DNA of 58,577 bases, the filler included, from Basidioascus undulatus (lineage: Eukaryota), in NCBI GenBank assembly GCA_000826855.1. It is 3 parts of 3 records of this genome, joined end to end, with 100 filler letters (N's around TTAATTAATTAA, not from the genome) between each part and the next. Parts side by side here need not be neighbours in the genome. Positions count along the whole stretch, not along the records: positions 1 to 19,474 come from JTLS01000418.1; 2 more parts are not named here. One strand, written 5' to 3'. The translations under genes were made by a program, and so were the position numbers. The notes below the pieces were generated by a model. It did no database searches and was not told where the DNA came from. It saw only the letters and a list, made by a program, of their open reading frames with translations. Below, one piece after another: positions 1 through 45,107 of this stretch (the first letter of the stretch is position 1; every line of letters starts with the position of its first letter).

Positions 1-129
1 ACTGGTCTCATATTCCTCATCATCCTCCTCCTGCACGCCCACCTCCCTCTCCCCTCCATCCCTAAACACATCCTCCCATATCCCATCCTTCCTCATATCT
101 CACTCTTCTCTCCCCTCCCGGAACGCTAG

Positions 130-1075
130 GCCAGACTACATGCGAGCAATAGGTACGCTTCCCCCTCCCTCCTCACTCCCTTCTCTTCCGCCCCGCCCAC
201 CCACACTCAACCGCCCTTCTACCAACCGCACAACAGCCAAGGTCGACCCCGCACCGCTCGCGCAATCCGGTGTCCAACTCATCGCGATCACGAACGCCGA
301 GTGGCGGATGATCAAGGCGTTCAAGCGTGGGTCTTCCTCTCTGCCCCCCTCCTCCTTCCCCTCCCCTCCTCCCTCCTCTTCCCTCTTCCCTCTTCCCTCT
401 TCCCTCTGTTCCTCGGGTGAGGAAAGACCCGAGCTGATACCAGACCCGACACGATCAGGCATGACGCACTATGCGCACCCCTTCGAGCTCTACACGGACC
501 GCTCGGGCGCGCTGTACGAGGCGCTGGGCATGACGCTCAAGCCGTTTGCTGTGCGTGTCTTTTTCTCCTCCGTCTACTTTGTTCCCTGCCATCCTGACAC
601 CCCACCCCGCGACCCGTAACAGTTCGGAGCAGAGTGCGACAAAGGCTCGTACTGCACGCGGAACATCCTATCCGCCTCGCTCAGTGGTCTCTGGGTCCTT
701 TGCCTTCCCTCCCTTCCTCCACCTCCTCCCCATTCCTTCTTTCTGACATCGGCACATCCGCAACCCTCAGGACGGCCTCACCTGCCTCCCCCTGCACTAC
801 CCGGGCGACATCTCCCAGCTCGGGGAGAGTACGTCCTCGGCCCCGGGCTGCGGTGCGAGTCTGCCCACCGCGCGACGACGCAGCGCAACTGGTCCGAGCC
901 GGGCATGGTCGTGCGCTGGGCGGGGGTGGGCGCCCCGCACCCGCAGGCCTGGGCCGAGAGGGAAAGTGGGGAAAGGGAGAGGGAGAGGGTGAGGGAAGGG
1001 GAGGGGGACGAGAACTGGGTGCCGAGGAGCGAGCCGGGCGTGGAGACGATTAGGGAGTGGTTGAACGAGGATTGA
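130..1075 (+). CDS. AhpC/TSA-like (peroxiredoxin-like 2 / FAM213-type) protein, 5'-truncated, multi-exon
   Basis: Spliced reading gives DYMRAI-AKVDPAPLAQSGVQLIAITNAEWRMIKAFK...FELYTDRSGALYEALGMT...PGDISQLGGEYVLGPGLRCESAHR, ending at TGA 1073-1075. The YxDxxxxLYxALG and GDxxQLGGEFV motifs are typical of this family. Confidence 0.7.
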
Positions 1076-2335
1076 GGGGGCCCGGGCGTCGAGCAGGGAG
1101 GTTTCCTTGGAGTCTATATTTGCATTTCTGGGGAGAGACGGGAAGAGGGGGGATGGAAGGGGACTTGCATTGCTCTGCATTGGTTCACTTATTTAACGCA
1201 CTCGTCTCGGCTCCGCGGCGGTGTGCTTCTGTGACCATGGCTGGAATGGCTGTTATCGCTTGAGACAAGCTAATTTACAACCAAGAAGAAAGTCCAAAAT
1301 GCCTGATGCCGTCTACGGTGCTCTGAAAGTGTGCATGCGTATGCCATTGTCTGCCGGATCTTGACGCCTACCCCTGTGGGCCATACCTCGATTCTACCTT
1401 CTGTGATCACAGGTGGCTTGAGAAAGTCTCTCACGCTCTCGTGTGATTCTATCGCAGACCAGGCGCAGTCGCTGTCCCCACCGCCACGCTTCTGCGGTGA
1501 CATAGTCCAGACACCCGGGAAGCTTAGCGTTACTGCAAAGTCGGCGAGAGTGATTCGACAGATGCTATTTCCAGACGAAGGCGAGTTGATGGTCCTGCCA
1601 GTGGGAACCTCTAGTCTCGTCTCGCAGTCGTGCAGGAATGCCGTGAGTAGGTATCAGCGACCCACCTTTAGACGCATCAGAATGGCAATTCTCAAGATTT
1701 TCTGAGCATTGAAGACCGATTCGGATTATTGGGAGTTCCTGCGGTCGCAGTGTGCTTCTCGTCGAGTCGATGCAGCAGGCTGTCTCTCTGCCTCTGATGA
1801 GCAGGAGGGCCGCTGCATCGGTACCCGCTCTTCAGAAGCCGGCGCCCACAGGAAACGCCCGAGTCGAGTCTAGCCATGCTGTGCCGGTGAGTATGCGGCA
1901 CCTGGACCGAGATAAAGAGAGTGTGCGAATTGTGGCGGCAACAACGGAGATCAGGCTGCTACATACTTACAGCTAGCGGCTCCTCCGTTTGGCCAGCGTT
2001 GGCCGGTGCCCAGCAGCACATGCACATGTCTACCGGCGAGCTCGGGCCATTATCACTGATGTGCCTGACCTTGAAGCACACGAGGAGATAAGCTTGGCGC
2101 AATCGGTTGCACGCGAGCACTTGTACAAATTGAGATGGCTTGCATGCGGCTCGCTTCCGGCGTCCTTATCGCCGTCGACAGGCCAACGAGGACGAACTGC
2201 CAACGAGCGTGTGACTGGAGACGGGACGAATCACAATACAAGAGTCTGAGAGTGGCGATCATCTTCCCTTTCTCCTTCTTTTGCCACATTTGTTCTCCTT
2301 TCAATTCCTCAACACCCCTCAACACTTGCCCCAAG

Positions 2336-5300
2336 ATGTCGGAGGGCGTGCCGAGAACACCCCACATCGACGAGACGATTCACGCTCTTCCTCACCATGA
2401 CGAGAAGCCTTCGCTGCCGTCGTTCGACGAAGACAAGAAGTCGGTGCAGGGCGAGACGAGCGTGAAAGTCGACGATGCAGAGGAGTTCTACGTGCGTCGA
2501 CCGCGGAAGCCTTGAGTCTGATGGCACTCGCTTATCGAGACAAGCTGCCAGGACATCGCCAGCGGCAAGCCGCTCGCTCCCATTGAGGGCCCGGCGGAGC
2601 CTCATCAACTCACCGCTCGCGCATTGGTGATCGGGTGTGGTTTGGGGTGCCTCGTTGCGGCGTCCAACGTCTACCTCGGGTTGAAGACGGGCTTTACCTT
2701 TGGTGCTTCGCTGGTGAGTAAAGAGCACCGTCATCTCCTCTGGCACCGAGCATTGCGCTGACAACCTTCTCCAGTTCGGAGCCATCTTTGGGTTCGCCAT
2801 CGCCAAGGCGCTCGCGAAAGTCACGCCGCACTTCATTCCGACCTGGCTCGGCGGTGGCTACTTCGGGCCCAAGGGTGCGATTCGAAACACGGCTACTTCC
2901 CACGGTAGCTTACGGATCTCCCATTAGAAAACGTGACGATCCAGACCGCTGCTACCGCTGCAGGCTCAATGAGCGGACTCTACGTCGCTGCTGTATGAGA
3001 GCTCACGTTCTTCTGTGTTCGATGTTCTCTGACCACCTGCATCCCTGCACAGGTCCCGGCTATGTACCAGCTCGGCGTCATGGGCGACCCCTCGAAGGAC
3101 TTCGGAAAGGTCAGTGTTCTCATCATGACAGGAACCCTACACAGCGCCGTCTAACCATGGCTACGCCCGGCAGTTGATCACTTTCTGCCTCGTCCAAGCT
3201 TATTTCGGGGTACGTCCATGGGCATGTGGCTAACCGATTAAGTGGTGTGCAGCAACTGAGAGCATAGATCTTCAACTGCAGGTGTTCTTCGCCATTCCGC
3301 TCCGGAAATGTAAGTGTCAGAGAAAGCTACGCGTATTTTAGAAATTTCCATTGCTGACATCGTTTCATCTAGACTACATCCTGAAGCAGAAGGTATATCG
3401 TGATTCTTTCAACCGAGTGTCAGCTGTACTAATCTGATATCCAATGCGTTGCATTCCTTGTAAAGCGTACGTCGCTTGAGTGGCTGCAAGGCGCAGGGAT
3501 CATGGCTGACCTCAACGCGTCTTCCCGGGAACTCCATCGCAGTCATTTTCCCGACTCCCACCGCCACCGCCCTTACTATCCACTCCTTGCACCAACCGCA
3601 CGGTGAGGAGGCGGCGCAGCGCAAGGTCAAATGGCTTGGATGGTCCTTCATCGGTGCTTTGCTCCTGCGTGTTCTCAGTAGCGGTGCTCCGGGCATTCTC
3701 TGGGACTGGCATAGTGAGTCGCGGGTGTTCGAGTTTTGTGGGTAGTTACTGAAGTTCTTGTGGTCAGTCTTTTGGTGGCTGTGGACTTGGGGCTGGAACC
3801 ACAAGGGCATTGCGCAGGCGGAGTCTTGGTGAGTCAAAGAACAGGTTCCGAGCGGCTGAATTGGACTGATGATCTTTGTTTTTTTGCGCACAGGGGATGG
3901 TGAGTTTGGAACTTCACGTATCAATAGGCCCGTGGCGAAGGATCTCACGACTGTACCGCAGGTTGATCGAGCTCACGCCCGCCTTCTTCGGCAACGGCCT
4001 TTTGGTCGGCTTGAACCCCTCCTACTCCTTCTTTGGCGGTTCGGTACTTGCTTGGGCGTAAGTCCAACCTTCGAGCACTGAAACACTGAAGATCCGTGCC
4101 TGACGCACTTGACTTTTAGCATCATTGGGCCTCTCATCAACGGTACGTGTGAGCTTGCACGGGTGCATTTCATTTTACTCACAGACACCTTTTTGGTTCG
4201 AAGGTCAGGTGGCTTTCAGCTCGCCTTCTGGCCTCGGTCCGGCATTTGCGAATTTCCAGGTGGGTCGGGCGGCCTTGCATTCCGACGTTTCGGCCGACAT
4301 TTGTTCAATTTCTTTGCTTTGCACAGAGCATGAGCAAACTCGATGACCCCGTGAATCGTCCTTCCCCGCGTTACTGGCGTGCGTATAGGTTACTACGGAC
4401 CTGCATGTGCGGGCATTGACGTTGTCCTACAGTCCTGTGGCCCGGCGTGCTCCTCATGCTCGTCGCCTCTTTCGTGGAGATCTTGTAAGCGAATGTTCAG
4501 TGTCGGGTACTGAATAAAGACTGAATTCAGCTTCACAGCATGAACGGAAAGATGATCCTTTCCGCATTGAGGAACGCTGGCGCGTCCATGTGGAACGCAG
4601 TGGCGCCCAGGCTCGGAAAGCGCACTGTCGGACCGCAGGTCAACTACGAGGTGGGTCTGTCCCTTGACTCCAGGAACTGTCTAAGAGAGTGCTCACCTGC
4701 ATGGACCAATGCTGCAGGACGAGGACCCTACGACTCCCGAAGAGCGTGTCCCGCTCTGGGCCTGGATAGGAGGTCTGCTCGCCGCCATCATCCTGACCTG
4801 CGTCGTCATGGGCGTCGCCTTCGACGTCGGCGTCGGATTGACAATCCTGGCTCTGGTCATGGGCTTCATCTTTGCTTTCGTGCGTCCCTACTGCCTTGCG
4901 TGTTTAGGTTGGACCTTACCCGTGATTCTCTTCAGATCGGGATTGAGTCTTCTGGACGGACAGACGTGTGAGTGAAAACACCAGCAACGTGAGCTCTTCA
5001 GGTTATTTGGATACTGACGCAAAAAGGAGGAAAACAGCAACCCTTTGACTGCGTGTGCTAAGGTAAGCAGAAGATTCCAGCCCTTGAGGGCCCTTCAGAC
5101 TGATTCGGTGGCTGTGTGTGCCAGGCATCGCAACTGGTTTTCGGAGGTGTCACGAAGAACAATTACTCCGTGAGCAGGCCGCCACTTGGATGCATCACGA
5201 ATCTGGCCTAACTGTCTTGAATCGCAGACGGATCATGCCCTTCGCGTGAACGTATGTAGTGCTGCGGCAATCCTCAGGTTGGCTTGTTTCTCATAAAACT

Positions 5301-6544
5301 CTCCTCCCCAGTTGCTTGCCGGCAGCATTGCGAGCTCCGCGGCGTCACACTCGGTCGACATGATTGGAGATCTTCGCAGTGAGCATCCTGTTACCCTTTC
5401 CCGGGGGAGCTGTATGACTGACTTCTCATTCACTGCAGCTGGGCACCTCCTCGGCGTTTCGCCGTACTCCCAGTTCATCGCTCAGTAAAGTCGCTCTTCA
5501 CGTTCTCGTCTCCCTCCAGCTCAAACTAACAGGGGTCCACCACGTAACCAGATGTGTCGCTTCCATCGTCGGCTGCTTTATCTCTACCGGCCTTGCGTGC
5601 GTAGACACTTTCGTCTTACTCAGCGCTCCAGCGAACTTCTGATCTCACGTTACCCCCATAATGTCACACAGAATTGTGTTCTTCACGGCCTACCCGTGCA
5701 TCATCACTGGCGATGAGTGCAAGCAGTTCTCCGCTCCTTCAGTTGCCGCTTGGGTTGCTGTTGCAAGTGCGTCCAGTGCCTCTCCGTTTGCCAAACGCCG
5801 TGCCTCACACCTTGCCCCATCTCAGAGGCTGTGGTTCTCCCCCACCTTCCAGTTCCTCCTAGCTCTGGATACACTGCGATTGGATTGAGTGTCGTACGTG
5901 CCAATTGCTGCCTTCAACTGTAGGCGTCACCCACCGAAGCTTCGCGTCCCAGGCTGCCGCAATCACGATTGTCGCAAAGCACACTATCGTCCCGGAGCGC
6001 TACCGCGGGTGGGTGCCTAACTGGTGAGTTCTCTTTCCTTGGTCGTGGGTGCCTCCGCGCATCTCAACGGTCCCCCTCTACAGGAATGCCATCGGCCTTG
6101 CCTTCGTCGTCCCGCAGCCGTACTACAGCGTTGCGATGGTACGCGCATTCTCCCATTTGTCCACACGCCCACCAAGTCCCCCTGCTCACCGAGCACTTCG
6201 AGATCCTGCAGATCATTGGGTCAACTATGGCCTACTTCTGGAAGCGCCGCAACCCGTCCTCCTTCGATGCCATCGCGTTCAGTCTCGCTGCAGGCATGAT
6301 CGCCGGAGAGGGTATTGGCGGCGTGATCAACGTTCGTCCTTCCTGCTCAGATCACAAGCATGTTCGAACGCACAGTATCGGCTGACTGCGCTTTCTTTGC
6401 AACGCAGGCTGCCGTGACGATTGGAGGCGGCAAGTGGGAGGACGTTGGCTCGGCCGTCGGGTGTCCAGTACGTCGTTTGCCAGAGTGGTTCATTTATGGG
6501 ACTGACTGACTTTGACTGCACAGGGCAACAAGTACTGCGGCTAA
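2336..6544 (+). CDS. OPT superfamily (YSL-like) oligopeptide/metal-chelate transporter, very intron-rich
   Basis: ATG 2336 (MSEGVPRTP). Exons read RALVIGCGLGCLVAASNVYLGLKTGFTFG, GPKENVTIQTAA, PLRKYYILKQKLIFPTPTATA, IELTPAFFG, SVDMIGDLR and AAGMIAGEGIGGV. TAA at 6542-6544. Confidence 0.93.
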
Positions 6545-7238
6545 TGCGCCTCTCATCCGTCTCACGGGCGCAGCCTTTCAAAACAGCGACTGCGTTGCTC
6601 TTTCTGTTTCTCGTGGCCTGTACGGCTTGAAATGTCACCGTGTACGGAAATGTGATGCACTCGTTCTCTTGACTTGCTTTGGGTGTCAGCTCCCGTTGTC
6701 AGCGGCGTCAACTCCATCTGTTTGTGGTGACGCGGCGAATGGCTGCACCGCTACTCTGCTCTCCTATACTTGGAGGACTTCCCGTAGCCAAAACTTCTAG
6801 TTTCGCACCGCTAGAATTTGGACCTCCAAATGTCAGATATCTGGCAGCGCTACCGTAGGAGACCGAAGTCCGCCAGATTGCCAGTCTGGCGCGAGTGTTC
6901 GTGCGTCGGGCTGCACAGCATGTATCGTAGCTGGCAGTACACCGGGCAGTCGCGCTGTCCTTCGGAAGATCTGCCCAACGACCACAAATGATCTGGAGGT
7001 GCTGTCAATCATCTGGGGAGGGGTCGGCCCCTCCCCAGACTCGGTGATCTGGAGGACCTCTCTGACCACGTGGTTGCTGTCGCTCACGGTCCTCCAAACG
7101 GTGAAATACGCAAACTGGCACCGCTAAACAAGGAACCTGGCCTGCGGTAAGTCCTCCATTGAACTGCGGGCCAAGGTACCACTATACTACATGTTATGGC
7201 GCCACCGTGCGCGATCTCCCATCTGCAAGAGGCGGATA

Positions 7239-7498
7239 CAGCGGTTTGCAGGATCTTTGTCCTACGCCCTCTTTTCCTCGCATCCTCCGCCCGACTAGAG
7301 CCCGCTTAGAGCTTTCAGGGGCTACGTACTTATCAAGTAACCCTTGATAACCTGAAAGAGGACGACGTCTGTGCTGTAGTCCATACAAAGTCTTTTAGAA
7401 TACACATATACAGTACTGTCGTGGGACACCGCACAAAGCTACTGTTTAGTTGAGAGGTGTTCGTCTTTATTGATGAGGGACGATCCTGCAAACCGCTG
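7239..7498. mobile_element. MITE, Tc1/mariner-like (non-autonomous, 260 bp)
   Basis: Perfect 17-bp terminal inverted repeats CAGCGGTTTGCAGGATC (7239-7255) and GATCCTGCAAACCGCTG (7482-7498). Each side is flanked by TA (7237-7238, 7499-7500). The interior has no convincing coding capacity. Confidence 0.75.
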
Positions 7499-7856
7499 TA
7501 CAAGAGAGGGATGCTGCTGCAGCAGAGTGTGATCGGGGTGACTACTCAGATACTCAGATACTGAGCAGTCAGTGAGCGCTGGCGGAGCCGGAAGTCAGAA
7601 GGGTCTTACTGAGCTATTCACAAACGCTGTATATGTGTTTATATCAGATCAAGAAATCATCATCACGAGTGTTTGATCCTCACTATGCCATACCTTGCGT
7701 ACGGCAGACTTGGCAGCCAGGCTCGAGGGTCGCGAGCCTCCATGCTTTGCCCAAGCGCAGCAAGCGCAGCCCAAAGAAACATTAGACACCTGCAGAATAG
7801 CAATACGAATTCGCATCAACCCATAGAATATGTAGCAGCACTAGCCATCCGACCCT

Positions 7857-8790
7857 CTACGCGCCAGTCCTCTTCTCGTAAGCCTTCCACCCAGCTTCCC
7901 TGTACCGCTTCGCCTCCTGCAGAATACTCTCCTTGTCCTTCCCGCCGCCATAGATCCCGCGCCCAACAATGATCACGTCCGCCCCCAATCCCACGACCTT
8001 CTCCGGCGTCCGGTACTGCTGCCCCAGCCCATCGCCCTTGACGTCCAGCCCCACGCCAGGGGTCATGACGATGAAGTCGTCCTCCGGTCCGCTCCCGCCC
8101 AGGCGCCGCTGCGCGATGAAGCCGACGACAAAGTCGCGGTGCCGCCGCGCCATGGCGAGGGAGGCATCGGTGTAGGAGCCGACGGCGAGGGAGCCCGCCG
8201 AAGACATCTCGCCGAGGAGAAGCAGGCCGCGCTGGAGGGGAAGCCCCACTTTGGCAAGGCCCGAGACGATACCGTCTCCCGGGAGCGCATGCGCGTTCGT
8301 CAGGTGTGACCAGGAGGCGATGCGGTAGACGCCGGAGGAGTATTGGAGGGAGACCGTGTTGCCTGTTTTGAGCTTCGAGTGTTCAGCTCCTTTATGGCTA
8401 TACGATACTAACGGAACATGGGCGCACCAATGTCGGCAAACTTGCGGTCCTCAAAGATCATAAAGTCGTGCTTCTCCGCGAGCGCCTGCAAGCGCTCGAC
8501 GAGATCCCAATCAAAGTCCTCGACGATGTCGATGTGAGTCTACGCTCCGCCGCACGACCTCAGCATATCCGTCCTACGCGTATAGTTTTATCAAGTAAGC
8601 GTACCTTAACAAGCGCCACCTCCGGTCCGACAGCATCGACGACGCGGAGGAGGTCCTCCTTCTTGGAGAGGTCGACCGAGACGCACAGGTTGGTGCGCTT
8701 GCGGGCGAGAAGCTCGAGGATCGCCCGCCCGGTCGGGTTGGTGTGATTCTGGACGCGTGCGGCGTAGGACTGCGTGTGCGGCGTAGACAT
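7857..8790 (-). CDS. URA3: Orotidine-5'-phosphate decarboxylase
   Basis: MSTPHTQSY...[67 protein letters not shown]. Two introns. Confidence 0.98.
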
Positions 8791-9118
8791 AGTGAATGGC
8801 GCGTCGTAGATGAAGATGGAGATGGGCGGAGAGCAAGTCCAGAGCAAGTCGAAGCGAGAAGGCCGTATGGCTTTTCCCACGCTGGCTGTCAGGCCCGGAC
8901 ACCAGGCGAGTGCGGCCGCACGCGCTGGTTGCCAAGTTGCTTCGCCCTGTTTCGTTCCAATCAGCCCTTTTACCTGGCGACGCCGGGACATAACAACCGC
9001 TCACGCTGGTTCATTTTCTGATTCAAAACCATGCTCACCGTTCTTTGCTCTTGATCCCATCCATACACCTTTCGATCGCTGGGGAGCACTTACTCACCCC
9101 GCCGCACACCTTCGAGCC

Positions 9119-10073
9119 ATGTCGACTCCTACCCTCTCGCTTCCAAGCCGCAACATCGCACCCTCGAACAGCTCCATATCCTCGTACTCGCGCGCGACAA
9201 CAGGCCTCTCATCCCGCGTGAATTCTCATCGGACGAGACGATCCCGACCGCGAGCTTGCTCCGGGAGGGGGAATCTGCGCACGATGCGTGCTTTGAGGAG
9301 GGCGGAGGAAGCGAGGCGCAGCAGGCTGGTTTAGTGGACGGGGCGAAGGGATGGTTTGGGAGCTGGCCGACAGGGAAGGGCTCCGCGATGGGAGGTGAGT
9401 ATCACATAGCACTCGCGCTGAGTGCGGGCATTGCGCACATGAGGCCAGACTGGTCTTACTGGAGGGACATGGGATAGACTATGAGCCCACGATACGACAG
9501 CCTCTCAGGCGTAGCTCCCGTTGGCGGTGGCGGCGGTGGCATCCTTGCGAGTTGGACCAAGAACATTTCTCGAGCGGTAGGCATTGAAGACGGCTACGGT
9601 GCGTTCGGTCACCTGCTACTTTTTCGGTTTTGACAATGTGAGCACCCACCCTGCTCACAGCGAGCGACGCCTCCGACTACGCCGGCGGGGATTCGCATCT
9701 GTGCGTGCACATCCTCGCCCAGTTCGCTACGCCACTTTGCTGATCCTGACGCCCTCGCCCCATTTAACCAAAAAAAGGACACGCATCCTCAAAGAATATT
9801 ATCTATCCAAAGCCCATTCGCGCGCAGACCTCCCAACCTGGCTCTTCCTAACCGACGCGCGCCTACCCCCGCCTTTCCAGCCGCCGCTTTCTGAGCGCAG
9901 CTACGCCCCTTCGGAAGACCCGCAGATCTCTGCGCGTCCTGGCGTCTCTCGTGCGATGAGCGAGCGCGGCTGGAGCGGGGTGGGCGAGGTGGAGCAGCAG
10001 GGGGGATGCGGCGTACGAGAAGCGGCACTAAGGCGGAGTAAAGACTGAGGGCTATGCGGAGGGGAAGGAGCTG
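9119..10073 (+). CDS. Putative Mso1-like (Sec1-binding domain) protein; reading frame appears disrupted
   Basis: Spliced segment DYAGGDSHLTRILKEYYLSKAHSRADLPTWLF resembles the Mso1 N-terminal motif. A frame change is needed near 9220-9255 and again near 10000-10040. Confidence 0.45.
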
Positions 10074-10476
10074 AAGTTTCAAGAGGAGGGAGAGAGCGTA
10101 GAGGACCGAGGGCGTGGGGGAAGCGGCGTTGGGGAGATGGTGCGGAAAAGGTAACGGGTGAGGTATTCAATTTTTGGTGTACTCTCTCCGCTTCTTCCGG
10201 CCGTTTCATACAGATGAACGCAAATGTGTTTCTTGTCCGAATGACTGCGCTTGTCTCAAGTAAAAGATATGCAACTGCATCGCAGCTCTGTTCTCGACGC
10301 GGTGAGCGGCACACAGCTCTCACAGTCGCCTAATTCAGCCGCTGGCGTTGCGTGGAGCTTTCAGGTCATTACGTTACACAGAAAACACTTGTGGGATTTG
10401 CGGTGGCGCTATGCAGTTTAACTGTTTCAAATATGAAATCGTACAAGGTGTGATCCCATTGACTCTTTAGGCTGGG

Positions 10477-13400
10477 TTACCAGGCTAATCGCGCCACGCA
10501 AGAGCGCGGCCAGCGGCGGACGCAGTACTTCCGCATCTCATCGACGCTTTGGAAGGAGATACGGAAGAGCACACAAAACCAATTTCCCTCCACCATCAGA
10601 ATCCAGGATAATCTTTTCGACCGGCAATAGTGTGTAACGTACAAGAGAAGGCCTAAGCCGCATGCGAGTGCGATTCCGTAGATTTCGCCAGGGACTGAGT
10701 GGGTGCCCAGTGTGCGTTGACTGCCAAGTGTAGAAGCGCGTTAATTCTGAAATCACTGTCATTGCATAATCCTCTTGGTCAGACGCACAATAACGGGATA
10801 TACGAGAAAAAGCTCGCGAGTGCGAGGGAAGCGAGCATCGCGGGGAACAGCGCCAGATTTTTGGTGGGAGGGTGCTGGAAGATGCTGAGATGTCGAGTGC
10901 GGGTCGCGAGGAGATTACTTTGATACAACAATTCAAGTCAAGTTCCCATCAATCTAACGATCAGACGACTCGAGCGTACCCCCATTGCATGAGCACCAAA
11001 GTGTGGAAGTAGATGGACCGGGTCTCGTCGAGTCGCGCCGGGGTGAGGCTGGGTGGGTATCGGCCATAGCCAAAAGCAAGGGACGAGAACGGCACGCCTG
11101 CATGGGGGCGTCTTCATATAATCTGGAATATAGCCAAGAAATGGGCTTACCATGGCGCTGCAGATAGCTGAAGGCCAGTGCTGATGCGCAGCATGCTTGC
11201 ATGGGGCCGATAAAGAAGAAGGCGTGCAGGAGAAGCTGAAAACACCGGCACCTATAAATTATACTTGCGAGGAATAAAGAAGGTTCTCGCTCACCTTCCA
11301 GTCCACCAGATGGTCCTGCTTGACGTTGCGGGGAGGCTCCTTGAGCAACCTCGTCTCTGGCTGTTCTCGGACTAGACTGAGCGCGGGCAAGACGTCGGTC
11401 GCACAGCTTATGATACTGCCCGTCCTGGATTTTTAATGACTAGAACGATCATGGAAACGGTGGGCCTTCTCAAACGTACATCATTTGGATGGGCGACAGA
11501 ATTTGCGGGAGGCCGAAGATGACGTTCAGTAGGATGGGCGTCAGCTCAGATAAGCTAGACAGACGATGTAAGCTTCTTTAGACTTGTTTTATAGTAGTAA
11601 GAGAAGGGACTCGCCATCCAGCCGGTAGAAGGTACAGCAGTGTCTTGCGCAGGTTCACAAACACCAAACGGCCTTGCTCGAGCTTCGTACACAAGGCGCG
11701 TTGTCAGCACCATGTGTTCTTCAAAACCAGGCGACATGTCTAAACACACTGCAGTGACAATGAGCGGTAACGAATCCAGAAGTACAATCTGAATTGCAGC
11801 GTTAGCGGAAGGGTCGGGATGCAGGCAAAGGAAAGTCGGACTGACATCGGCAGCTTCGCGCGGGACCTCGGATCCACTGCCCATAGCTATGCCGATCTAT
11901 TTAAATGGGTTAATAGACATTATACGGTAAATTTTCTAACTTCTTAGAAGATGAGGCGAACATCGGCAGCCTTGAGGGCAGGGGCGTCGTTGACTGCAAG
12001 CATGTTCAACGTTGAAGCGCTGGCAATGCAACGACAAGCTGTGGTGCGCACCGCCATCGCCCGTAACTCCCACAACGTGAGATCTATGATAAAATGGTCA
12101 AACGGTTAACTTTTTTGTCTGAAAAGTTTGCGGTAGTCAACATACCGCTCGCGTAACCGTTCAACGATGAGAAGCTTTTGCTCGGGCGTCGTCCGAGCGA
12201 AGACGCACTCCTCGTACGTAACGAGACGATCCCATTGCTCATCCGTCTGTTAAGCTGAGTCAGTATATCTATATTCTGACAAATTAAGCCGATAAACTGT
12301 ACCAATTGGTCGACGTCGGATCCCAACAGCACGATCGCGCGAGGTACCCGCTCCAGCCCCGACGAAGTAGAGGGGATACTCAAGGAGGTAGGAGTGTCGC
12401 CCTTGAGGTGAGCTGCCGTGTGGGTGTTCGCATAGTCCGTAATGATTCCGGCTGCTCCAGCGATGGTGACGGCGGTGACCTACCGGACCTCGCTTAGTTC
12501 AGTCATGAAAGATAGCCATACAGAAAACAGCGCACTCACCGGGAAGTCCCCCGTGATAACGTACAGGCGCACATGCGCCTCACGGCAAATACTATCAGAC
12601 CCAGATCGTGCATAAGCTTACCGGTAATTTGCAGAGCACCGGACTGCTTACCGCACTGTTCTCGGAATGTCGTGCTTGAGGGGATCGATCAAGCCAAGGA
12701 AACCGACAACCTGAAAAATGACCTTAGCATAAAGGTCGCTACAATTGAATATCACGAGACCTGTACGCACGGTGAGTTCACGAGAAGCAATACGCTCCAT
12801 ATGGTCCTTAAACGCTGCTGTCCCGGGCTCGGCACCCTTCACATCGGCGCGGGTCACTGTGCGCCGAGCGAGAAGAATCACCCGCAATCCTTGAGCCGAC
12901 AACTCCTTTTGCACCTCCTCGAGGCGGGCGAGCGCCATGAGATGGAGCGGGACCGGGGTACCACTCGCGGGATTGATAAAAGAGTTGCAGTACTGAAGAA
13001 CGACTGGGAAAACAGTCGCCAATTATCAACTGCCATATGGTGAAAGCTTGGTGGGGTCAAGGCGTTACCGTCTGGAGCCCCTTTGAGAGTGAGAAGGTAG
13101 TCGTCAGGGTCAAAGTCGTCGTGAGGCAACATCGGTGGAGGCGGCGGTCCGCCTGCCTCGACACGTTTTAAGAGCTTAAGCATGAACCGGGTACTGCTAC
13201 TGAAGTCGACTTTGAAGACCTCCTTCCACGGCCGCCTAATCTCGTCAATGTCGACAACGGATACGGCAAGCTTTAGAATCGCCGCATCTGTCAGCCTACA
13301 AACATTAGCTCAGCGTTTCAAGGACCAAAGCAAGAGGACTACTGGCCCGTGGCATCTCCAACAACGGCGACCGCTTTCTTTTCTTCTACATCGGAGCCCT

Positions 13401-15573
13401 CCTTGACCTCCACTACTGCAGCGTTGCATAGCGTCGCGACAGAGACCAGCTGGAGCCATGCCTCGCCGGTCGGAAAGCCCTCCTGGATCTTGTCGCGGAG
13501 TTTCGACGCCGGTACTTCGGTGTCGAATACTGCTGTATCAGTACACGTCCTGCAACCCACAAGAAGCAACTCCAGGTCAGGCGCGACACGGCGTGACACT
13601 ATATGTAAAGGCCAGCGGAACGAAATCTGGAGCTTGTGAGAGGGGGGAAGACTTTCATTTCGTTCGAGGTCAGGGTGCCCGTCTTGTCTGTGCAGAGTAT
13701 GGTTGCGGATCCCAACGTCTCGACGGCGGAAAGTGTTCTTGGGGGTTGGACAATGTCAGACTTTACGGAGTGTCTCCACCATTGTACATTCTTACTTGCA
13801 CAGGATCTTGTTTTTGGCAAGCAACCGAGCGCTCCGAGCCAGCGACAATGTCACACAGACAGGTAACCCCTCTTCCACCACCCAAATTAGCCTCAGTACA
13901 AATGATTGTTGGGTTGGAAAATTAGACCGACCAGGAATGAAGGCCACGGTGACTGAGACGGCGTTGACAAGCAGAAGTGGGACAGGAATAAATCCGGGGT
14001 AGTCACGACGCAGCCATCTGTACAACGAGCAGCCCGCGAACCGTCAGTCCGAGAAAGTATATGTTTTAGTTTGGATGGAGCATGACTTGGCGTACACAGC
14101 CCATAGTATGATATACAACACACTGACCGCAAGCGCAAGAGAGACGATGATGGCCACCTGCGGAGTTGGCACCCTGTTCATAATAGCTCGACGAATTCTC
14201 GATAACAAAAACCATCGGGAACACTGCACTCACAAACCGATATATATCTCTCTGAAGTGTGCTCAGCCTCGTCGAGCTCGCCACCGTCAATCGGGCGATC
14301 CGACCGAAAGCCGTCTTGTCCCCGCACTGCACGACCAGTCCGACGCCGGAGCCACCGACTACAGACGTGCCCTGGAGGCCGATGTTTCCCGAAAAGAGGT
14401 AACTGCGGTCGGTAGCATCCAGAGTTGCGAGTGCAGGCTCGCTCTGTTCGCAAGCAATGTAATTGACTCCTTGGATCACGATGACAATAGCGGCAGAAAG
14501 CGACGCACCTCGCCAGTGATCACGCTTCGATCAAAGCGCAGGCCACCACTCTTCTCGATAATGCGCAAGTCAGCGGGAAGGCGTTGTCCAAGCGAGAGGA
14601 TGACAAGGTCGCCTGGAACGAGGTCGACAGTGGAAATGGTGCGCCGCTCGGAATCTCGCATGACTATTGCGGAAGTAGGTAAAAGAGAACCAAGGCTCCT
14701 GTAGAAAGACAGCGATAACGGGGAGCCCCATACATTAAGAGGAGGACAGTCTCACGTCATGACCCGCGACGTGGAGATATCCTGCCAGGCTTGGAAAATC
14801 GCTTGGATGAGAACGACGACGAGGAGAATGATGGCGAGCGCGAGGTGATTGACGAGAGAGTTCGGCTGGCCCAAGGGGCCCCTGTTCCCATCCGGCCCCA
14901 TGAGGATCTTTTCAGCAGCGAAGAGCGCCATTTGCGTACCATGCAACAAAACAGATAACAGAGGCGACGAGGAGCAAGCTCCCGAAGCCGCCGAAAATCC
15001 AGCTCAAGACCTTGGCATTTTCCCCGTGTGTAAATTAGCTCCCCGGTTCGGGAATTGAGAACCCAGATACTCACCTTCCGGGCAATGTGACGGGGCGGAG
15101 GAGTAAGTGGGTTCTTGCCTTCAAGGGCAAGCCTGCGAGCGGCCTGCGCGCTGTCGAGTCCGGTAAGCGGCGAGACTGCTAGACGTTGCAGCGCCTCGTG
15201 CGATGTTATAGACTGCCAGTCCAGCTTCAAAAGGTCTTCGGTGGAAGGCGCCGAGTTCCATAAGCCCTCGCAGGGGGGTGACCTTCGTGAAGGGGCATCT
15301 CTTGACCGCACCTTTGGCCACAGCATCCCGTTTGGCCCACCCCTTACGCGAGGCAGGCTCCTCCCTCTCAGGATCCTGTACGGAGAGCGTCAGATAATGC
15401 ATGAGCCTGCGACTCGCGACCGGCGGAGACGAGCAAGGCCGGGACGCGTCCTTCTTGGGTCGTCGTCCTTTTTGGTGCCGCCCCCGCCATGTTGGACGCC
15501 AGGAACTGTCCGCGCGATCGCTTATTTTGAAAGGGGTTCTCTGAGATTCGAGGTCGGACTGGTGTTCTGCCAT
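10477..15573 (-). CDS. P-type ATPase, Na+/K+-ATPase-like (fungal ACU-type K+/Na+ uptake pump)
   Basis: FDRSVITGE, VAFIPEGLP, LCTDKTGTLT (phosphorylation site), KGAPD, ITGDFP, GDGVNDAPALKAAD, EQGRLVFVNLRK, YLLPAG, ATRTRHLSIFQ. The C-terminus VARLAW ends at TAA 10477-10479. Confidence 0.92.
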
Positions 15574-16789
15574 TGTGCCGCAACGAGGCCGAACGGGAGG
15601 AATCGAGGAAGTCGAGCTTTGAAGGTGGGTGAAAGCCGGACGAGTATCGCGGCGGATGCAAGAGTCATACCAAGAGCGTTTATTTCAAAGTATTCTTTTG
15701 GTGCGAATAGCCAGACCGTCATAATGAGTGAGCAGACGCCGACAAAGTTAAACGACAGCTCCCTGTGTGCGCGTCCGGGAAGGTAGAATTACATCTTTGA
15801 ACTTTTTTCAACGAGAGCACCGAAAGGTTCCGTTCTTTTTGTAGTTGCCACCACCTAGGTGAGGATCGGAAGAGTCTGCAAACAGGCTGTTACAAGTTTG
15901 CGCAGGGAAGTTGCACAACAACCGTCCGGCTATTTCACTGCAGCATCAAGATTGCACCGTCCTCATTATTGCCTTTACATAAACTGCCCACTTGGCAATG
16001 CTATGTAGGAACTGGATATCTTGAGGAATGCGGACACATCCGTTTGCTATGATCAGGCGGGTCGCCGAGTCTGTTTGAGCATGACTTGTCCTGCAAGCTG
16101 AGGTACTGGATGGAAACCAACAGGGAACATTCTTACGGTCTTGGCAGTACAGGCTATAGCGTGTCTCCCAGTGTCCCTTTCAAAGCGTTCCAAAGCGTTA
16201 GCCGCAGTCTACTGTTGCACAACTGTAATTTGTAACTGCCGTATTGTGACATTCAGACCAACACCTCGTCTCCTGAACCCGAAAGAGAAACGGCCCAACA
16301 AAAGGCAATTGTTTATGGGATTCAGGTCCTTTCTGGAGCCGAGGAGGGCTGTAGCGATGCATAGTCCCCCTTTGTTTAACCTCCAAATAAATGATATTAA
16401 TACCTCCGCTCCCATTGATGGTTCGGTGGTTGAGTCGTCCTAAAGCGGTGTTGAAACTTTGCCCTGACCCCGATAGCAGTTCCTTGACGACGAGCTCCCT
16501 CCGTTCGTGGCCGCTCGTTCGCCGCTCGTTCGTGCGGTCTTTGCATCTTTTCTTTTTCCATTCCTACCATCAAAATCTCTTCATGGCTAATTAGACGGCT
16601 CTTTTTCGCTCACTCAACTTTGGCTTCGACAGCTACACTTTCAGCATCTCCGCTGGTCGGTTACTTTTACGCAGTGCGTCGTTTGCCCTTCTCACCGCTG
16701 CCGACGCGAGCTGACGCTCCCGTTCCCATTCAGCTCACCGTAGAGAGTACCCCCAATGCCATCCCCTAATCCTCTCTCCCCTCGATCAA

Positions 16790-18334
16790 ATGCGCTCCGT
16801 CGCGACCGCCTCTGCCCTCGCCCTCCTCGCCGCGTCCGTCGCGCTCGCTATTCCTGAGCAGTATGACCAGGGCGGGAACGGGAGACAGTACCAGGAGAAG
16901 TCCAGCGGCCAGTATCAGCCTCAGTGAGTCATCTCCTTCCGGCTTTGACTACGTTTGGGCGTTTCGCTGACGTTGGACGCATGGCCCGTCAGGTACGGTT
17001 CTGGGAAGGAGAACTCGTGGAAGAATCAGTACGACATGTGCATCCAGCGTGCGTCTCTTCTTCGGCCTCCGGATTCACTCCTACAGTCGAGACTGATGGA
17101 TTATAAGGCGAACGCAGAATGCAACCAAGGCTACGAGCAGCAGCAGGGCCACGCGCAGCAGCAGCAGCAGCAGCCTCCGTCGCCGAACGACAACACGACC
17201 GACAAAACGACCACACCCACCCCGACCGCAGGCGGAACGGGCGGACGCACACGATCGTGGTGGCGCCGGGACGCGGAGGTGAGGGAACAAGCTTTCCTGA
17301 TGTTCAAACTCAGGCGCGCTGTCCGTTGATCGCGTATCTTCCAGTACTTCGCTTTGCTCCCGCCGGCATGAACACTGCATCGGGGGACACGGTCGTCTGG
17401 CAGATCATGAACGGCAATCACAGCATCACGGTACGTCCTTCGTCTCAACGCCCATATTGAGAGCCATTTTCTCTGACTGCTTGGGCCATCCGTCAGCAAT
17501 CGTCCCCCTCGGAATCTGCAACGTCACTGCAGCAGGGTTCGACTCGAGTGTGCAGCCCGCGCCGTTCACGTTCTCGCAGCCAGTCGCCTCAAACACCAAC
17601 ACGACGTTCTTCTACTGCAAAGTCGGCGCGGTAAGCCGCTCCTCGAATGTCGCCGACCGTTCGACGAGCTGATGCTTATTTTATTTATGAAGCACAGCCT
17701 TGACGGGATGTTCGGCCTCCTGGACCTGCCGTGCGTAGGGGACGTGAACAACCCCGCCTCTGTCGGCACTGCCATGGCTGCGCTGGCCGCCAACGTCCGT
17801 CCTTCTTTTTTCTTTGCCCCAGCGGTAGAAGGCTGACCACTTCAAGGAGGGAACTCGCAGTCGAACGAGTTCTCCAACATGATGGCCGAAATCCAGGCGA
17901 TCAACACGAGCTGCTCCGCCGCTGGGCCAACGGGCTGAGGCACGCAATGGGATACCTCCGCCCTGGAGGCGTGGGCTGTGCCCAAGGTTGTCGAGAACGT
18001 GGCGTGCGTATCCGACCGCATGGCTCTCGCTCACAACCCTGGCTAAACAACTTGTCCTCGCCTTCGCAGCTACGCCCAGGCAATCATGTGCTCGAACCAC
18101 GACTGGCAGCCCGGCATGGCGATCTCCGAGTCCGCCATCATCCCGGACGTCAAGGCTCTCGCGTAGCAGGCCGCCGCCGTCTCCGTCGGTACAAAGTCCG
18201 GAACAGCCTCCTCCAAGTCCAGCGCGACCGCCGGCGCCGAGAACATCTACGCGAGCGCGGGCGAGCCGAGCGTCGTCTACGTGGCTGAGCTCGCGCTCAT
18301 GACGCTTGCGCTCTCCTTCTTCGTTCTCTCTTGA
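16790..18334 (+). CDS. Secreted Gln/Thr-rich cupredoxin-fold protein with GPI-like tail (frameshift plus in-frame TAG; possible pseudogene)
   Basis: Signal peptide MRSVATASALALLAASVALA. THTIVVAP-GVLRFAP..GDTVVW...NHSITQS...FFYCKVGAH..GMFG matches fungal extracellular cupredoxin-like proteins. Hydrophobic end LALMTLALSFFVLS. Frameshift at about 17240 and TAG at 18164-18166. Confidence 0.75.
17137..17175 (+). repeat. (CAG)n-rich polyglutamine-coding microsatellite
   Basis: cagcagcagggccacgcgcagcagcagcagcagcagcct inside the cupredoxin-like gene. Confidence 0.8.
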
Positions 18335-19239
18335 TCATCACTCAAATTTGTTCTTTTTCTCTTCACGCGCTAGGCTTGTAAGCCCTATTCACCTGTTGAC
18401 TGACTTTTAACCTCGATCTCGGCACTGGCTGTCTTCACCTATCTCACCCCCCTTTCGCGATCCGTCTTCTACCGGCTACAAGTTTATGAGTTGAGCATCG
18501 AGAAACGTCTTTAAAATACCTCCAAAAGTGAATGCGAACTTGCGTGCGCATAGGCTCTCCTGAACAGCAAAAGGGTTGCACAGGTGAAACTGCATGCATT
18601 GCTCAAGCTCGAACGAGTATCGTAGCCAGCTTCCCTGATCGGTAGCGACTGTGATTGCACCAATCGAGTAGAGTTATATTGTATTGTTGCGGCTGTATGG
18701 ACAGGATGCTTTCGAAGAGGGCATTAAACGCGAGAACGCATGTGAGGCTTTGAAAGGCCGTGCGTAGAATGCGGTCCAGCTGCATGCCGTACTTCGTCCC
18801 TGACAATTAATCATTGTCAATAAAATGTGGTTCGCATTCATGCGTCCCGAAGATGTTGCGCGTACAGTGCTAGTCAATGAGCTCCCACAGGGCCGAGAAC
18901 GGCACGTACGCAATGGGGCGAGACGCGGAAGGCAGCATTTTCAGCTTCGCTCATCTTCATATAAAACCATGCTCATACCAACCAAAAAGATGCATACAGT
19001 TCTATAGGCACACGAACAGCCAGTCCTCACGTCCCCCATCACGCCCCTACGCTCTGCCTACATTACCCAGCCCTTGCCCGAGCGAGAATCGCCGATCCGC
19101 GGACGGACTGATAATCATTCCCATGCGCATTCCGGATTGGACAGAATGGACGAAGAAAGCAAATATGTGCCCCGCGCAGTGTTTAAGTCTCTGTTGCAAA
19201 CATGCCCTCATCTATCCAAACAAGCCCTCAGCACGGCCT

Positions 19240-19474
19240 CTACTCCTCGAAGTGCTCCGCCCAGTGCCGCACGACCGCCTCCCCGCCGCGTCCCTCCCCC
19301 AGCGTGAACCGCTTGTCCCGCACGATCAGCATCCCGTGCGCGTTCCGCACGGGGTGGATGAACGCGAGGTAGCGCCTCAGCTGCGGGAGGGCGGTGAGGG
19401 ACTTGCACGCGTCTTTTTGCGCGGGGGTTAGGATCGGGCCGCGCGGGTCGGGGTCGGGGTCAGCGTCGGGGGAG
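19240..19474 (-). CDS. C-terminal fragment of a putative serine esterase/lipase (DUF676-like), cut by the gap
   Basis: PILTPAQKDACKSLTALPQLRRYLAFIHPVRNAHGMLIVRD...GEAVVRHWAEHFEE*. The RNxHxxIxxR...GxxVxRHW tail is recalled from fungal DUF676 hydrolases. Confidence 0.65.
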
Positions 19475-22892: not shown

Positions 22893-25207
22893 ATGTGCGT
22901 ATCCCTGTATGCTCCCCTTCTTAGACAGTCATCGAATGACCGCCGATTGCCAAATACAGGCCGCCGGCGGTTGCGTCGACTTCAGCCGAACCTGCGAAGG
23001 AGCCCGCGAAACAGAGGTCGCGGTCAGGGTGCGAAACTTGTAGAATGTAAGTAACAATCACCTCTCAAAGAACCCTATCAGCTTTCTGACAACGCGTTCT
23101 GATGTAAATAGACGCAAGAAAAAGGTTACTTCGTTTCGCAATCTATGCGGGAGCACTGCGGCCAAACGGAAAACTCACGATGTGGCCTTCTTCTAGTGCG
23201 ATGAGACGTACAAGGGTGGGTCTTGCGGCCGGTGCGAGGCGGCAGGCTACGTCTGCACCCCTCGTCTCCCAAAGGCCCGGCGTCACTTCGACCCCATGGC
23301 GTCGTCCTCTGCCCGCCGCTCGTCGCCCGTCGCTTCGACATCTACCCTGCGACCTGACCCTCCCGCTCCTCCCGTTCCTCTCGCTCCTCCCGCTCCTCCC
23401 GCTCCTCTCGCTCCTCCCGTCCCTCCAGCAACTTCTACCTCCTCCGTCGTCACCCCTTCCGCTTGGCCTTCCACCGACTTCTCGTTGTCCCCGTTTTTCG
23501 GCTCCGCAGACATGATGGGTTTCGACCCGTCCTCGCCCGGAGGCAGAGGGGACCAGATGACGGATGCCGCGGCCGATATGGGCCTATGGATGGCGCAGCA
23601 GGCCATGCAGAGCTCTGTGCTCGCGTCCGCGGTCAGGTTCCCGAAGGAGCCGGAAGTGGCAGAAGTCGATTTCTGTAAGTTCTGAAGTGTGATGTGACGC
23701 TGGGCCCGCCGTGCTGACTCTGAAGAGCTTCCAGACTCGCAGCACGTCGCGGGCCTCTGGTTCCTACCCAACATCCAGGATGTCGCAGCGACCATCCAGC
23801 GCTGGGCGACGCGCTCTCAGCTCTCGGCTGCTTCGAGTCGAGCCGCATCGGCTGCGTACAAGTCGCTCCAGCTCAAACAGACGTGAGTGATGGCTTCGGC
23901 CAGTCTGCGGCTCGCCTTCCCGGTACCCATACTGAGGCGACTGGATCACCCACGACCAGGCATACGCGGATCCTGCCCGACTCGCCCGACCCACTCGGCT
24001 CTGAGCACAGTAACGATGCGGCCGTCGTGACCATGCGCGCTGCCTCACAGTTTTACTCAGACGCGTTGCAGCTGTTCAAAAGTCCGACATCCGTCGACGC
24101 CGACTCGCTTCCGGAGCAGTTACAATCAGTGATGGACCTTCAGGTGCATCCCCGTTCTTGCCACTCTCAACCAAGGCTCTCAATGATACACGGCATGTTA
24201 CGCTGTACAGCTCTATCACTTCGCCTCGACCAGCGCAAAAGCGTCGTACGCGGTCCTCGCGATCGGCGACAGCCTCGTCCACGCGGTGTACGGCATGTCG
24301 CTCGTGTTCGACGTGAAGACGCTTGAGCGACGGGAGAACGTCGCGCTCCGGCAGTTCTTGCTTGCCGACCTCAGTCGATGCTTGGCCATCCCAGGCCGTA
24401 AACCCATGTGCGCTGCGCGTGTCTACATGAATCCGAGCTTCCGACTGACACAGAGTTGAACGGGCCAGCTACGACCTTGTTGCCAACACCAACTATTCCT
24501 CGCCCGCCTCTGTCCGGTCGAGCTCGTCAGTCGAAGACGAGGATTTGGATGAAGTTCCGTATCTGGTTTTGCCCCTTCTCCTCGCAAAGTACTTCCTCGA
24601 CATCGTCAAACTCTCGCTCGCCCAAACCCAGCCTGCCGACCTCGCCGCGCAAGCCGCGGCCCTCGAGTCCGCAATCCGCGCGTACGCTCCGCCCGCGTTC
24701 TCCTTGCCCACGCTCGCATCCGACAGCGCGGCGCGCGTTCGGAGCTTTGCGGCGGTGGAAGTCTGGCGACACGGCGCCATCCTACTCCTCCATCGTGCGC
24801 TATGCTTCTTTCCCCTTCTCCTTCTCTCCTGCCTCGCTGACCTTTCGCGCACTGTCTCATCAGAACTCATTCACAGCACCGGCCCGCTCCACCCGACTGT
24901 ACAGGACTCGCGCACCCAGATCATCCAACTCACGTCGCACGTAATTGACCCGCACCAGCGTCCGTCTACGGAAGTCTCGATCGGCGGCCTGCACGCGTTC
25001 CCGCTCTTCCTCGCCGCCACGATGTCCATCACGCCCCCGGACCGTGAGGCGTGCATGCTCCGCCTGCGCGAGACGGGACCGGAGCGCGTGTTCGAGGACA
25101 ATAGGACGTTTGTGCAAGCCTGCTGGGACGAGTCGGATTCCACCGGGTGGCCTGTTGATTGGCGGGCGGTGGCAAGGAGGGACGGGAAGGTGCTTGCATT
25201 CTTTTAG
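22893..25207 (+). CDS. Zn(II)2Cys6 fungal transcription factor with C-terminal fungal-specific TF domain
   Basis: Spliced RSRSGCETCRIRKKKCDETYKGGSCGRCEAAGYVC (CX2CX6CX8CX2CX6C). C-terminal EVWRHGAILLLH...FPLFLAA...VQACWDE...VDW resembles Fungal_trans_2-type domains. Confidence 0.9.
23358..23428 (+). repeat. Tandem 9-nt (cctcccgct-like) repeat coding a Pro/Ala linker
   Basis: PPAPPVPLAPPAPPAPLAPPVPPA in the transcription factor. Confidence 0.7.
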
Positions 25208-41842: not shown

Positions 41843-42904
41843 TTAGTACTCGTAAGGAGAGTTGGCCTGAGCCTCGTAGACGTAAAGGGTCGAGTTGTGC
41901 TGGTCGGGGAGGAAGTAGACGCGGAGGCGACCGTTGACGATGTCGACGTCGAAGGGATTCATCGGGACGAGGGTGCCGAGGTCGCTGACCATGGTGATGG
42001 GGACCTCAGAGACGGGAACCATGGACTCCTCGTCGACGAGAGCGATACCGCCGATGGTGGCGTTGCCGAGGGTGGTGACGCCGGAGCAGATCATCATGCC
42101 GCGCTCGTTGTAAAGGCTAGGGTGGCCGAGGAACTTGCAGTCCTGGTAGTCGGCCCAGTAGCTGGGGTTGCGGGTGACGGCGAGGGGCTTGGTGACCGTG
42201 GTCGAGTTATCGGCCTTGGGCGTGAACGTCTTGCCGTCGAGCTGCCAAGTGGAGGCGTTGCGAGCGCCCCAGTTGAGCGTGTAGAGCCTGTCGGCCTTGG
42301 TGTCGTGGACGACTCCGCCGTGGTGGTCGGCGGCGTGGAGGAAGGTGGTGGGCTGGAGAGTGCGAGGGTCGATGCGGACGAAGTGGGCGGTGGTGTTGGG
42401 ACGGTACTGAGCGATGGTTGCCCAGATGTACTGACCGTCGTAATCGACGCCGCCGTTGTGGTATTCCAGGGCGCCGGGCTCGGTGAGGGTGGCGTCGGCG
42501 ATGCGTCCACCCTTACCGTCGAAGACGATCATGTGGGCGAAACCGGAACCGGCGGTACGGTCGGTGCCGTTGACGATGGTGCCGTTGTAGGAGACGGTGT
42601 GGCTGGTGTACTCGGCGGCGCTGACGAAGTACCGGTCATCACCGATGCGCACCATGCCCTCAGGTTCGTAGGTGTCGCCTTGGAACTTGACCTTCTCCAC
42701 GAGCTTCCAGACGGTGGTGCGACCGAGGTCGTTGAACTGCTTGACGATCTCATCGCAGTTGGAGGCGGCGAAAGGAGGGGGGAGGCGCTGGGAGGTCACG
42801 TAGGGGACATTGGGCTGGTAGACGGTGACGTTGAGGGCGAGCGAGAGGGAGGAGGTGAGGAGGGTGACCGCCCCAGCGAGGGAAAGCGAGGAGGAGGTGC
42901 GCAT
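41843..42904 (-). CDS. Secreted intronless beta-propeller-like protein, DUF6454-like
   Basis: 353-aa single-exon ORF with a signal peptide. Motifs PEGMVRIGD, YHNGGVDYDGQYIW..AQYRP, DHHGGVVHD, NWG, NPSYWADYQDCK and GGIALVD are recalled from DUF6454 proteins. Confidence 0.75.
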   Translation of the reverse strand: MRTSSSLSLAGAVTLLTSSLSLALNVTVYQPNVPYVTSQRLPPPFAASNCDEIVKQFNDLGRTTVWKLVEKVKFQGDTYEPEGMVRIGDDRYFVSAAEYTSHTVSYNGTIVNGTDRTAGSGFAHMIVFDGKGGRIADATLTEPGALEYHNGGVDYDGQYIWATIAQYRPNTTAHFVRIDPRTLQPTTFLHAADHHGGVVHDTKADRLYTLNWGARNASTWQLDGKTFTPKADNSTTVTKPLAVTRNPSYWADYQDCKFLGHPSLYNERGMMICSGVTTLGNATIGGIALVDEESMVPVSEVPITMVSDLGTLVPMNPFDVDIVNGRLRVYFLPDQHNSTLYVYEAQANSPYEY

Positions 42905-43299
42905 CGTTGGCGTGTGTTGTCTCAGTCACCCAAAGCCGGCGTCGAGCGAGCACTGAGACGAGCGAGGACCGGCCAGGCGCGCGGCCATGTTCATATATAT
43001 CCTGTGCGAGAAGAAACTTCCTGGCGCCCCTCCGGCGGAGGTGATCTGGTCGTTCAGGTACGACCGAGGACGGGCGACAAAGAGAAACGGCCAACCAGCC
43101 CGTCCAATTGCCGGGCGCGCCAACGGGCAACGTGACGATGCATGGACCTTGCCGTCCGTTGGCAGTGGGGAAGGTTTGGTTATGGCCGTGTCTGCCTCTA
43201 TGGCCGTGCTCTCATGTCCCCTGCCTTTCTGATGCGTTCGCTGACGGTCTATCCATTGACCCCCTCTCTCTCCCCCTTCGTCACGATGATGCCGTCCCC

Positions 43300-45050: not shown

Positions 45051-45107
45051 GGGCTAGCGCAAAAGACCAGATCAACCTACCGCCCCGGGCTACCGCTCGC
45101 CCCTGCC

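Follow-up and report, generated by a model that had tools for sequence, protein, structure and literature searches.

We analysed a stretch of 58,577 nucleotides (nt), filler included, from Basidioascus undulatus (GenBank assembly GCA_000826855.1; three parts of three records joined end to end, positions 1 to 19,474 from JTLS01000418.1), hereafter the window, and conclude that an OPT-family transporter gene near its start very probably contains an exon of a single nucleotide. The exon is the C at position 3466, which we are confident belongs to the main transcript of the gene and lies there between two GT-AG introns, at 3393–3465 and 3467–3542. An initial annotation of the same DNA, made from the sequence alone, had proposed this arrangement, and all of its coordinates at the junction are correct.

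Three public sequencing runs were available, X1 from one study and X2 and X3 from one sample of a second study. All of the 31-letter words sampled from the stretch are present in X1 and X2, and a share of 0.31 is present in X3, equal to the share of such words that lie wholly inside exons. Over positions 2300–6600, X1 and X2 each yield one unspliced contig with no other letters and no gaps relative to the window (depths of 20.2 and 50.2, respectively), and X3 yields two spliced contigs, one of 1546 nt (depth 615.5) and one of 852 nt (depth 847.6). The X3 contigs carry 30 joints in total, and the 15 that are listed are all of the GT..AG type and skip 53–76 nt. Neither DNA contig contains any of these joints, and both X3 contigs continue outside 2300–6600 and so reach past the start and stop codons. 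X3 thus behaves as a cDNA run.

In the 1546-nt X3 contig, position 3392 is joined to position 3543 with exactly one letter between them, a C, which is the one base that separates the two exons in the mature RNA. The numbering of the contig agrees with this, as 208 letters lie between the pieces 2774–2873 and 3543–3713, the sum of the intervening exons of our gene model (66+57+36+28+20+1), and the same arithmetic fits the remaining listed pieces. The cDNA that had been predicted across the junction, CAGAAG-C-TCATTTTC, matches the contig, with the C alone between 3392 and 3543; cDNA without the C is not seen in it.

An alternative is that the C is an artefact, either because X3 is not RNA at all (consisting, for example, of modelled transcripts) or because the contig is mis-assembled at this point; the kind of run was guessed, no run is on record as RNA, and X3 is a single run kept as contigs. 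However, a set of modelled transcripts would have no depths such as those of the two X3 contigs, which also overlap by 30 letters like pieces of a read graph and carry untranslated ends, and all of their other joints agree with an independent reading of the frame. We regard an artefact of this kind as very unlikely.

All of the elements at the junction are on the plus strand. Exon 8 (3373–3392, 20 nt) ends in phase 0 with the codons AAG CAG AAG (...CTGAAGCAGAAG), and the X3 contig leaves the window at its last base. Intron 8 (3393–3465, 73 nt) has the donor GTATAT, the sequence TACTAAT at 3427–3433 and the end TAAAG. It is followed by the one-nucleotide exon (3466), the first base of a leucine codon C/TC, and then by intron 9 (3467–3542, 76 nt), with the donor GTACGT (3467–3472), GCTGAC at 3505–3510 and the end CGCAG. 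Exon 10 (3543–3713, 171 nt) starts TC ATT TTC CCG (TCATTTTCCCG) and encodes (L)IFPTPTATA...WDWH, which matches positions 137–174 of the profile PF03169; the X3 piece 3543–3713 has no letters that differ from the window. The branch-like CTRAY sequences of introns 8 and 9 both place the A 33 nt from the 3' end, and the two introns, at 73 and 76 nt, are of normal size for the gene, as had been proposed, the other 30 introns being 53–76 nt long. A U12-type or AT-AC reading of GTATATC was dropped, given the contig joint at 3392.

The coding part of the gene extends from the ATG at 2336 to the TAA ending at 6544 on the plus strand. Our model was made by reading frames from the DNA and joining exons by their coordinates, and was corrected by the transcript joints of X3. 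It has 33 exons and 32 GT-AG introns, with 2190 coding bases in 729 codons. The introns are 53–76 nt long (mean 63), or one for each 68 coding bases, and seven internal exons are of 30 nt or fewer (28, 20, 1, 6, 23, 25 and 24 nt). A single 157-nt intron at 5767–5923 was among the candidates rejected, being replaced from the X3 joints by two introns, 5767–5825 and 5894–5952, that flank a 68-nt exon. Four single exons match PF03169, with scores of 25.5, 18.4, 17.5 and 25.7 bits; each is below the cut-off of 25.8 bits, and the four are collinear, at profile positions 1–35, 137–174, 351–398 and 579–618 of 623. The nearest protein, P0157, is 50.6% identical to the spliced model in an end-to-end alignment of 751 columns and itself scores 324.9 bits against PF03169. 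On the basis of the four collinear exon matches, together with the identity to P0157 and the profile score of that protein, we assign the gene to the OPT family, and the description of it as an OPT transporter in the initial annotation is borne out.

The C at 3466 is the only C between 3393 and 3542 that has AG before it and GT after it, and the AG-C-GT unit, an instance of the pattern AG-N-GT, occupies positions 3464–3468. Because 3393 and 3542 are both G, a single excision cannot yield exon 8 followed by C and exon 10, and this unit is the sole canonical route to the observed mRNA. We scored the splice sites with a position weight matrix built from the 30 remaining introns of the gene and ranked them against the leave-one-out scores of those introns. 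The donor at 3467 (AGC/GTACGT) scores 8.8 bits, the best of the 12 GT dinucleotides in 3385–3544, and ranks above 24 of the 30 (gene mean 6.7), and the acceptor at 3542 scores 7.2 bits, above 20 of the 30 (gene mean 5.0). Only two gaps between exons of the gene are longer than 76 nt, at 150 and 133 nt, and both contain a micro-exon in the X3 contig.

Inclusion of the C gives the protein ...PLRKYYILKQK-L-IFPTPTATA... in a frame that is open for 729 codons. A single 150-nt intron, which leaves the C out, breaks the frame with a stop at residue 289 of 729, and retention of both introns leads to a stop at residue 223. The initial annotation had recognised both the restored protein and the frameshift, and had described the restored segment as the motif expected of the family. 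This holds in a comparison with 35 aligned relatives, in that 21 share the spacing of our model (PLRKxYIL-KQK-L-xFPTP) and 14 carry a form that is four residues longer (..YVAREL..); in the column of the split leucine codon, 33 have L, one has M and one has I. Omission of the base breaks the frame, and its inclusion restores a conserved protein. The first five homologues, all of the long form, had suggested that a hidden 13-nt exon supplies four missing residues; this was rejected, with the short form present in 21 of the 35 relatives and only the C in the contig.

There is another way to keep the frame open, in which one intron runs from 3393 to 3496, or to 3490, and the remainder is coding. 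Exon starts at 3497 or 3491 add 16 or 18 in-frame residues before IFPTPTATA and give proteins of 744 and 746 residues, and this is the probable choice of a gene predictor; moreover, the acceptor at 3496 (2.8 bits) is slightly above that at 3465 (2.1 bits), with the acceptor at 3490 at −0.3 bits. The initial annotation had named the use of other frame-keeping sites as a refuting case, but the X3 contig has only the C between 3392 and 3543 and uses neither acceptor. Furthermore, extra residues between the K and the L are absent from all 35 relatives, and a strong donor, a branch-like CTGAC and the acceptor CGCAG lie within the supposed coding stretch. We consider a single intron of this type very unlikely.

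An apparent frameshift most often stems from an error of one base, and the genome assembly could simply be missing a base, in which case there would be one 150-nt intron and the missing base would restore the frame. X1 or X2 may also be the window's own assembly data. Nonetheless, the DNA contigs of the two studies are identical to the window across 2300–6600, with no base lost or added, which points to true genomic sequence rather than an assembly error. The C of the mRNA cannot derive from the exon edges, where 3393 and 3542 are both G, and an intron of 150 nt would be twice as long as any other in the gene, the largest being 76 nt. We give a missing base very little credence. We give next to none to the idea that the C comes from elsewhere, through another C joined by non-canonical or nested sites or through the alteration or addition of a base at the RNA level: nothing specific speaks for it, the nine other C residues in 3393–3542 that have AG before or GT/GC after never have both and would need sites other than GT-AG or at least three excisions within 150 nt, and fungi are not known to insert bases into nuclear mRNA.

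Several observations nevertheless weigh against the one-nucleotide exon. The sites of intron 8 are weak, its donor at 3393 (GTATAT) scoring 4.4 bits, above 2 of the 30 other introns, and its acceptor at 3465 (AAAG) scoring 2.1 bits, above 6 of the 30; all four sites of introns 8 and 9 are inside the range of the gene, with both intron 8 sites towards its lower end. The pentamer AGCGT by itself is no more than chance gives, since the window's own frequency predicts 0.19 occurrences of AGCGT, and 0.58 of AGNGT, over 146 positions, and AGNGT occurs internally in 6 of the 32 introns of the gene. X3 is one run from one sample, the same sample as the DNA run X2, and its kind is recorded only as the guess 'DNA?'. 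The joint between 3392 and 3543 is outside the 15 that are listed, and is known from the letters between joints and from the contig numbering. The window may itself derive from X1 or X2, so that at most one of the two is independent of it. Contigs drop rare variants, so X3 speaks for the main transcript only, and a minor isoform that uses the acceptor at 3490 or 3496 may exist. Lastly, excision as two lariats, and the order of their removal, go beyond what the contigs show and are at best plausible. The C at 3466 does exceed chance, because the transcript contig carries it, the AG-C-GT unit is unique in the gap, and the donor at 3467 is the top-scoring GT.

Taking the C at 3466 as an exon, we consider sequential, intron-definition splicing of introns 8 and 9, as the initial annotation had inferred, to be plausible, contigs being silent on both lariats and intermediates. 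Recognition across the intron is generally held to apply to short fungal introns. Each of the two flanking introns has its own donor, branch-like site and acceptor at a size usual for the gene, and both are most likely recognised in this way, as are the 30 remaining short introns. The acceptor and the donor are one base apart and two spliceosomes would hardly fit together, so the introns would be removed in turn. As intron 9 is strong and intron 8 is weak, our guess is that intron 9, with its strong sites, would go first and that intron 8, with its weak GTATAT donor and AAG acceptor, would follow. After the removal of intron 9, the acceptor of intron 8 would face a normal exon of 171 nt.

Introns 8 and 9 align to each other with a similarity score of 7, against a mean of 6.6 for shuffled sequences (224 of 500 shuffles reach 7), and among all 496 intron pairs of the gene the best score is 12 and no pair stands out. 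Origin by duplication, or from an introner family, was rejected, introns 8 and 9 being no more alike than shuffles. A different and tentative proposal is that this is a young exon with an enforced order of splicing, and that in this gene, with its unusually large number of introns, a second intron arose at, or slid to, one base from an existing intron, which we think possible but doubtful. The companion proposal, that weak intron 8 can be removed only after strong intron 9, so that the site is a natural variant of recursive splicing with short introns and one residual base, is speculative to the same degree. If true, the site would offer a convenient way to study in a fungus how near two splice sites can lie.

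The relatives offer some information on introns in this region. The short proteins P0126 and P0148 carry 15–22 extra residues after PLRKxY(I/V), and in the short proteins P0127 and P0166 additional residues follow L(V/T)F, in each case resembling introns that have been read through. In none of the four do the additions fall between the K and the L. Within the same 20-codon stretch the introns of relatives may therefore sit elsewhere, a pattern that would fit recent intron turnover here. Exon 10, used in a metagenome scan, yielded the single locus L001, which was discarded because it shares only a short chance peptide and is not an OPT gene. No close fragment of an open reading frame (ORF) turned up when the ORF continuing through intron 9 into exon 10 was searched.

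A second micro-exon is present in the gene. It has the sequence GGGATG (3894–3899, plus strand, 6 nt) and is flanked by introns of 65 and 62 nt; at the X3 joint from 3829 to 3961 the contig has GGAT between, which with a G on each side makes up the 6-nt exon. Skipping it keeps the frame and removes Gly-Trp from ESWGWLIELTP. By our own arithmetic, the 30-letter overlap of the two X3 contigs lies near window positions 5147–5169, and a branching of the read graph, from a variant or a second isoform around exons 21–22 for instance, may be why the transcript is split there. In fragments from relatives (P0145, for example) the sequence from MYQL to DWH is uninterrupted, and the B. undulatus gene has five introns there.

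Intron density in the window is very uneven, with 32 introns in the OPT gene versus an intron-free copper-ATPase stretch 42 kb away in the window. The copper-ATPase ORF (48708–51047, minus strand) is uninterrupted for 779 codons, and its best named relatives are in the Agaricomycetes, with Suillus at 68–69% followed by Lyophyllum, Agrocybe and Mycena. Just upstream of it, on the same strand, an open stretch of 420 codons (51096–52358) is rich in repeated Cys-Cys-Gly-Gly motifs and has no Pfam match; it could be either a separate cysteine-rich gene or part of the ATPase, as a metal-binding N-terminal extension. An ORF at 44934–45779 (plus strand) has a weak match to a Ty3 capsid-like family (PF19259; 19.7 bits, below the cut-off of 29.1), and is probably the remnant of a Ty3/gypsy-type retroelement. 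The window also contains an intron-free ORF of 360 codons at 41843–42925 (minus strand) that belongs to the DUF6454 family (169.8 bits), and one exon, at 24449–25207 (plus strand), from the gene of a fungal-specific transcription factor (PF11951, 59.2 bits).

The C at 3466 in the OPT gene is well supported as a further case of the rare, already described one-nucleotide exons. It adds a transcript-supported example in a new gene family and, seemingly, in a new fungal lineage; in print we found one plant gene, a single P450 family of Fusarium and 13 genes of Coprinopsis. At the level of titles and abstracts, we found no report of a one-nucleotide exon in an OPT gene. The case is also a warning for annotation, in that a predictor would either break the gene or add 16–18 false residues to a conserved motif. 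Apparent introns of about twice the usual length, of which there are only two here, each hiding a micro-exon, provide a simple rule for finding more. With a single base separating a strong intron from a weak one, and in a fungus whose introns are short, the case is suited to tests of splicing order and of steric limits.

The experimental precedent is the APC11 gene of Arabidopsis thaliana, in which a one-nucleotide exon was shown by reporter assays and base changes (Guo and Liu 2015, PMC4674806). The authors of that study argue for intron definition, with the introns removed one after the other, cite a 9-nt exon of potato for which the second intron goes first, and name recursive splicing at zero-length exons as a model (PMC4674806). 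As in APC11, the OPT exon is a constitutive single base between two spliceosomal introns, is essential to the frame and is missed by annotation. The two differ in that APC11 is a different gene, from a plant, and was tested experimentally, whereas the evidence here is one assembled transcript.

A fungal precedent is that of the CYP621A P450 genes of Fusarium, with a one-nucleotide exon in the configuration AG-G-GT that is kept in 20 orthologues (Nelson and Syed 2026, PMC12940212); the paper presents the case as the second example and the first from a fungus. Both cases are fungal, with short introns, a base within a conserved motif and support from public RNA reads, and in both an apparent intron of double length is the clue, at 139 nt against a median of 56 in CYP621A and 150 nt against 53–76 in the OPT gene. 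However, CYP621A is from an ascomycete, its exon is a G and it is seen in 20 orthologues, whereas ours is a C in an Agaricomycete-like fungus and is seen in one genome. Among basidiomycetes, the long-read annotation of Coprinopsis cinerea has 13 exons of 1 nt, in 13 genes, together with 57 of 2 nt and 27 of 3 nt (Cell Genomics 2025, PMC12230235). With these 13 listed, one-nucleotide exons are already on record for the Agaricomycetes; neither OPT nor PF03169 is named in five supplementary files of the Coprinopsis study (PMC12230235). A plant micro-exon database spans exons of 1–15 nt, and the single-base exon of placozoan mitochondria belongs to another splicing system.

Two further systems share parts of this arrangement. 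In the stwintrons of filamentous ascomycetes an inner intron interrupts a splice signal of an outer one, and no exon base remains. The OPT junction is similar in having two spliceosomal introns in direct contact with a presumably ordered removal, but neither intron interrupts the signals of the other; introns 8 and 9 each have complete signals, and one base remains. Recursive splicing uses ratchet points of the form AG/GT that leave nothing in the mRNA and serve very long introns. In the OPT gene the AG is not followed directly by the GT, because one base lies between them and is retained in the RNA, and both introns are short. The likeness is in the intermediates, since excision of intron 8 first would leave the upstream exon abutting a 5' splice site (AAG-C/GTACGT), and excision in the other order would give the upstream acceptor a new exon.

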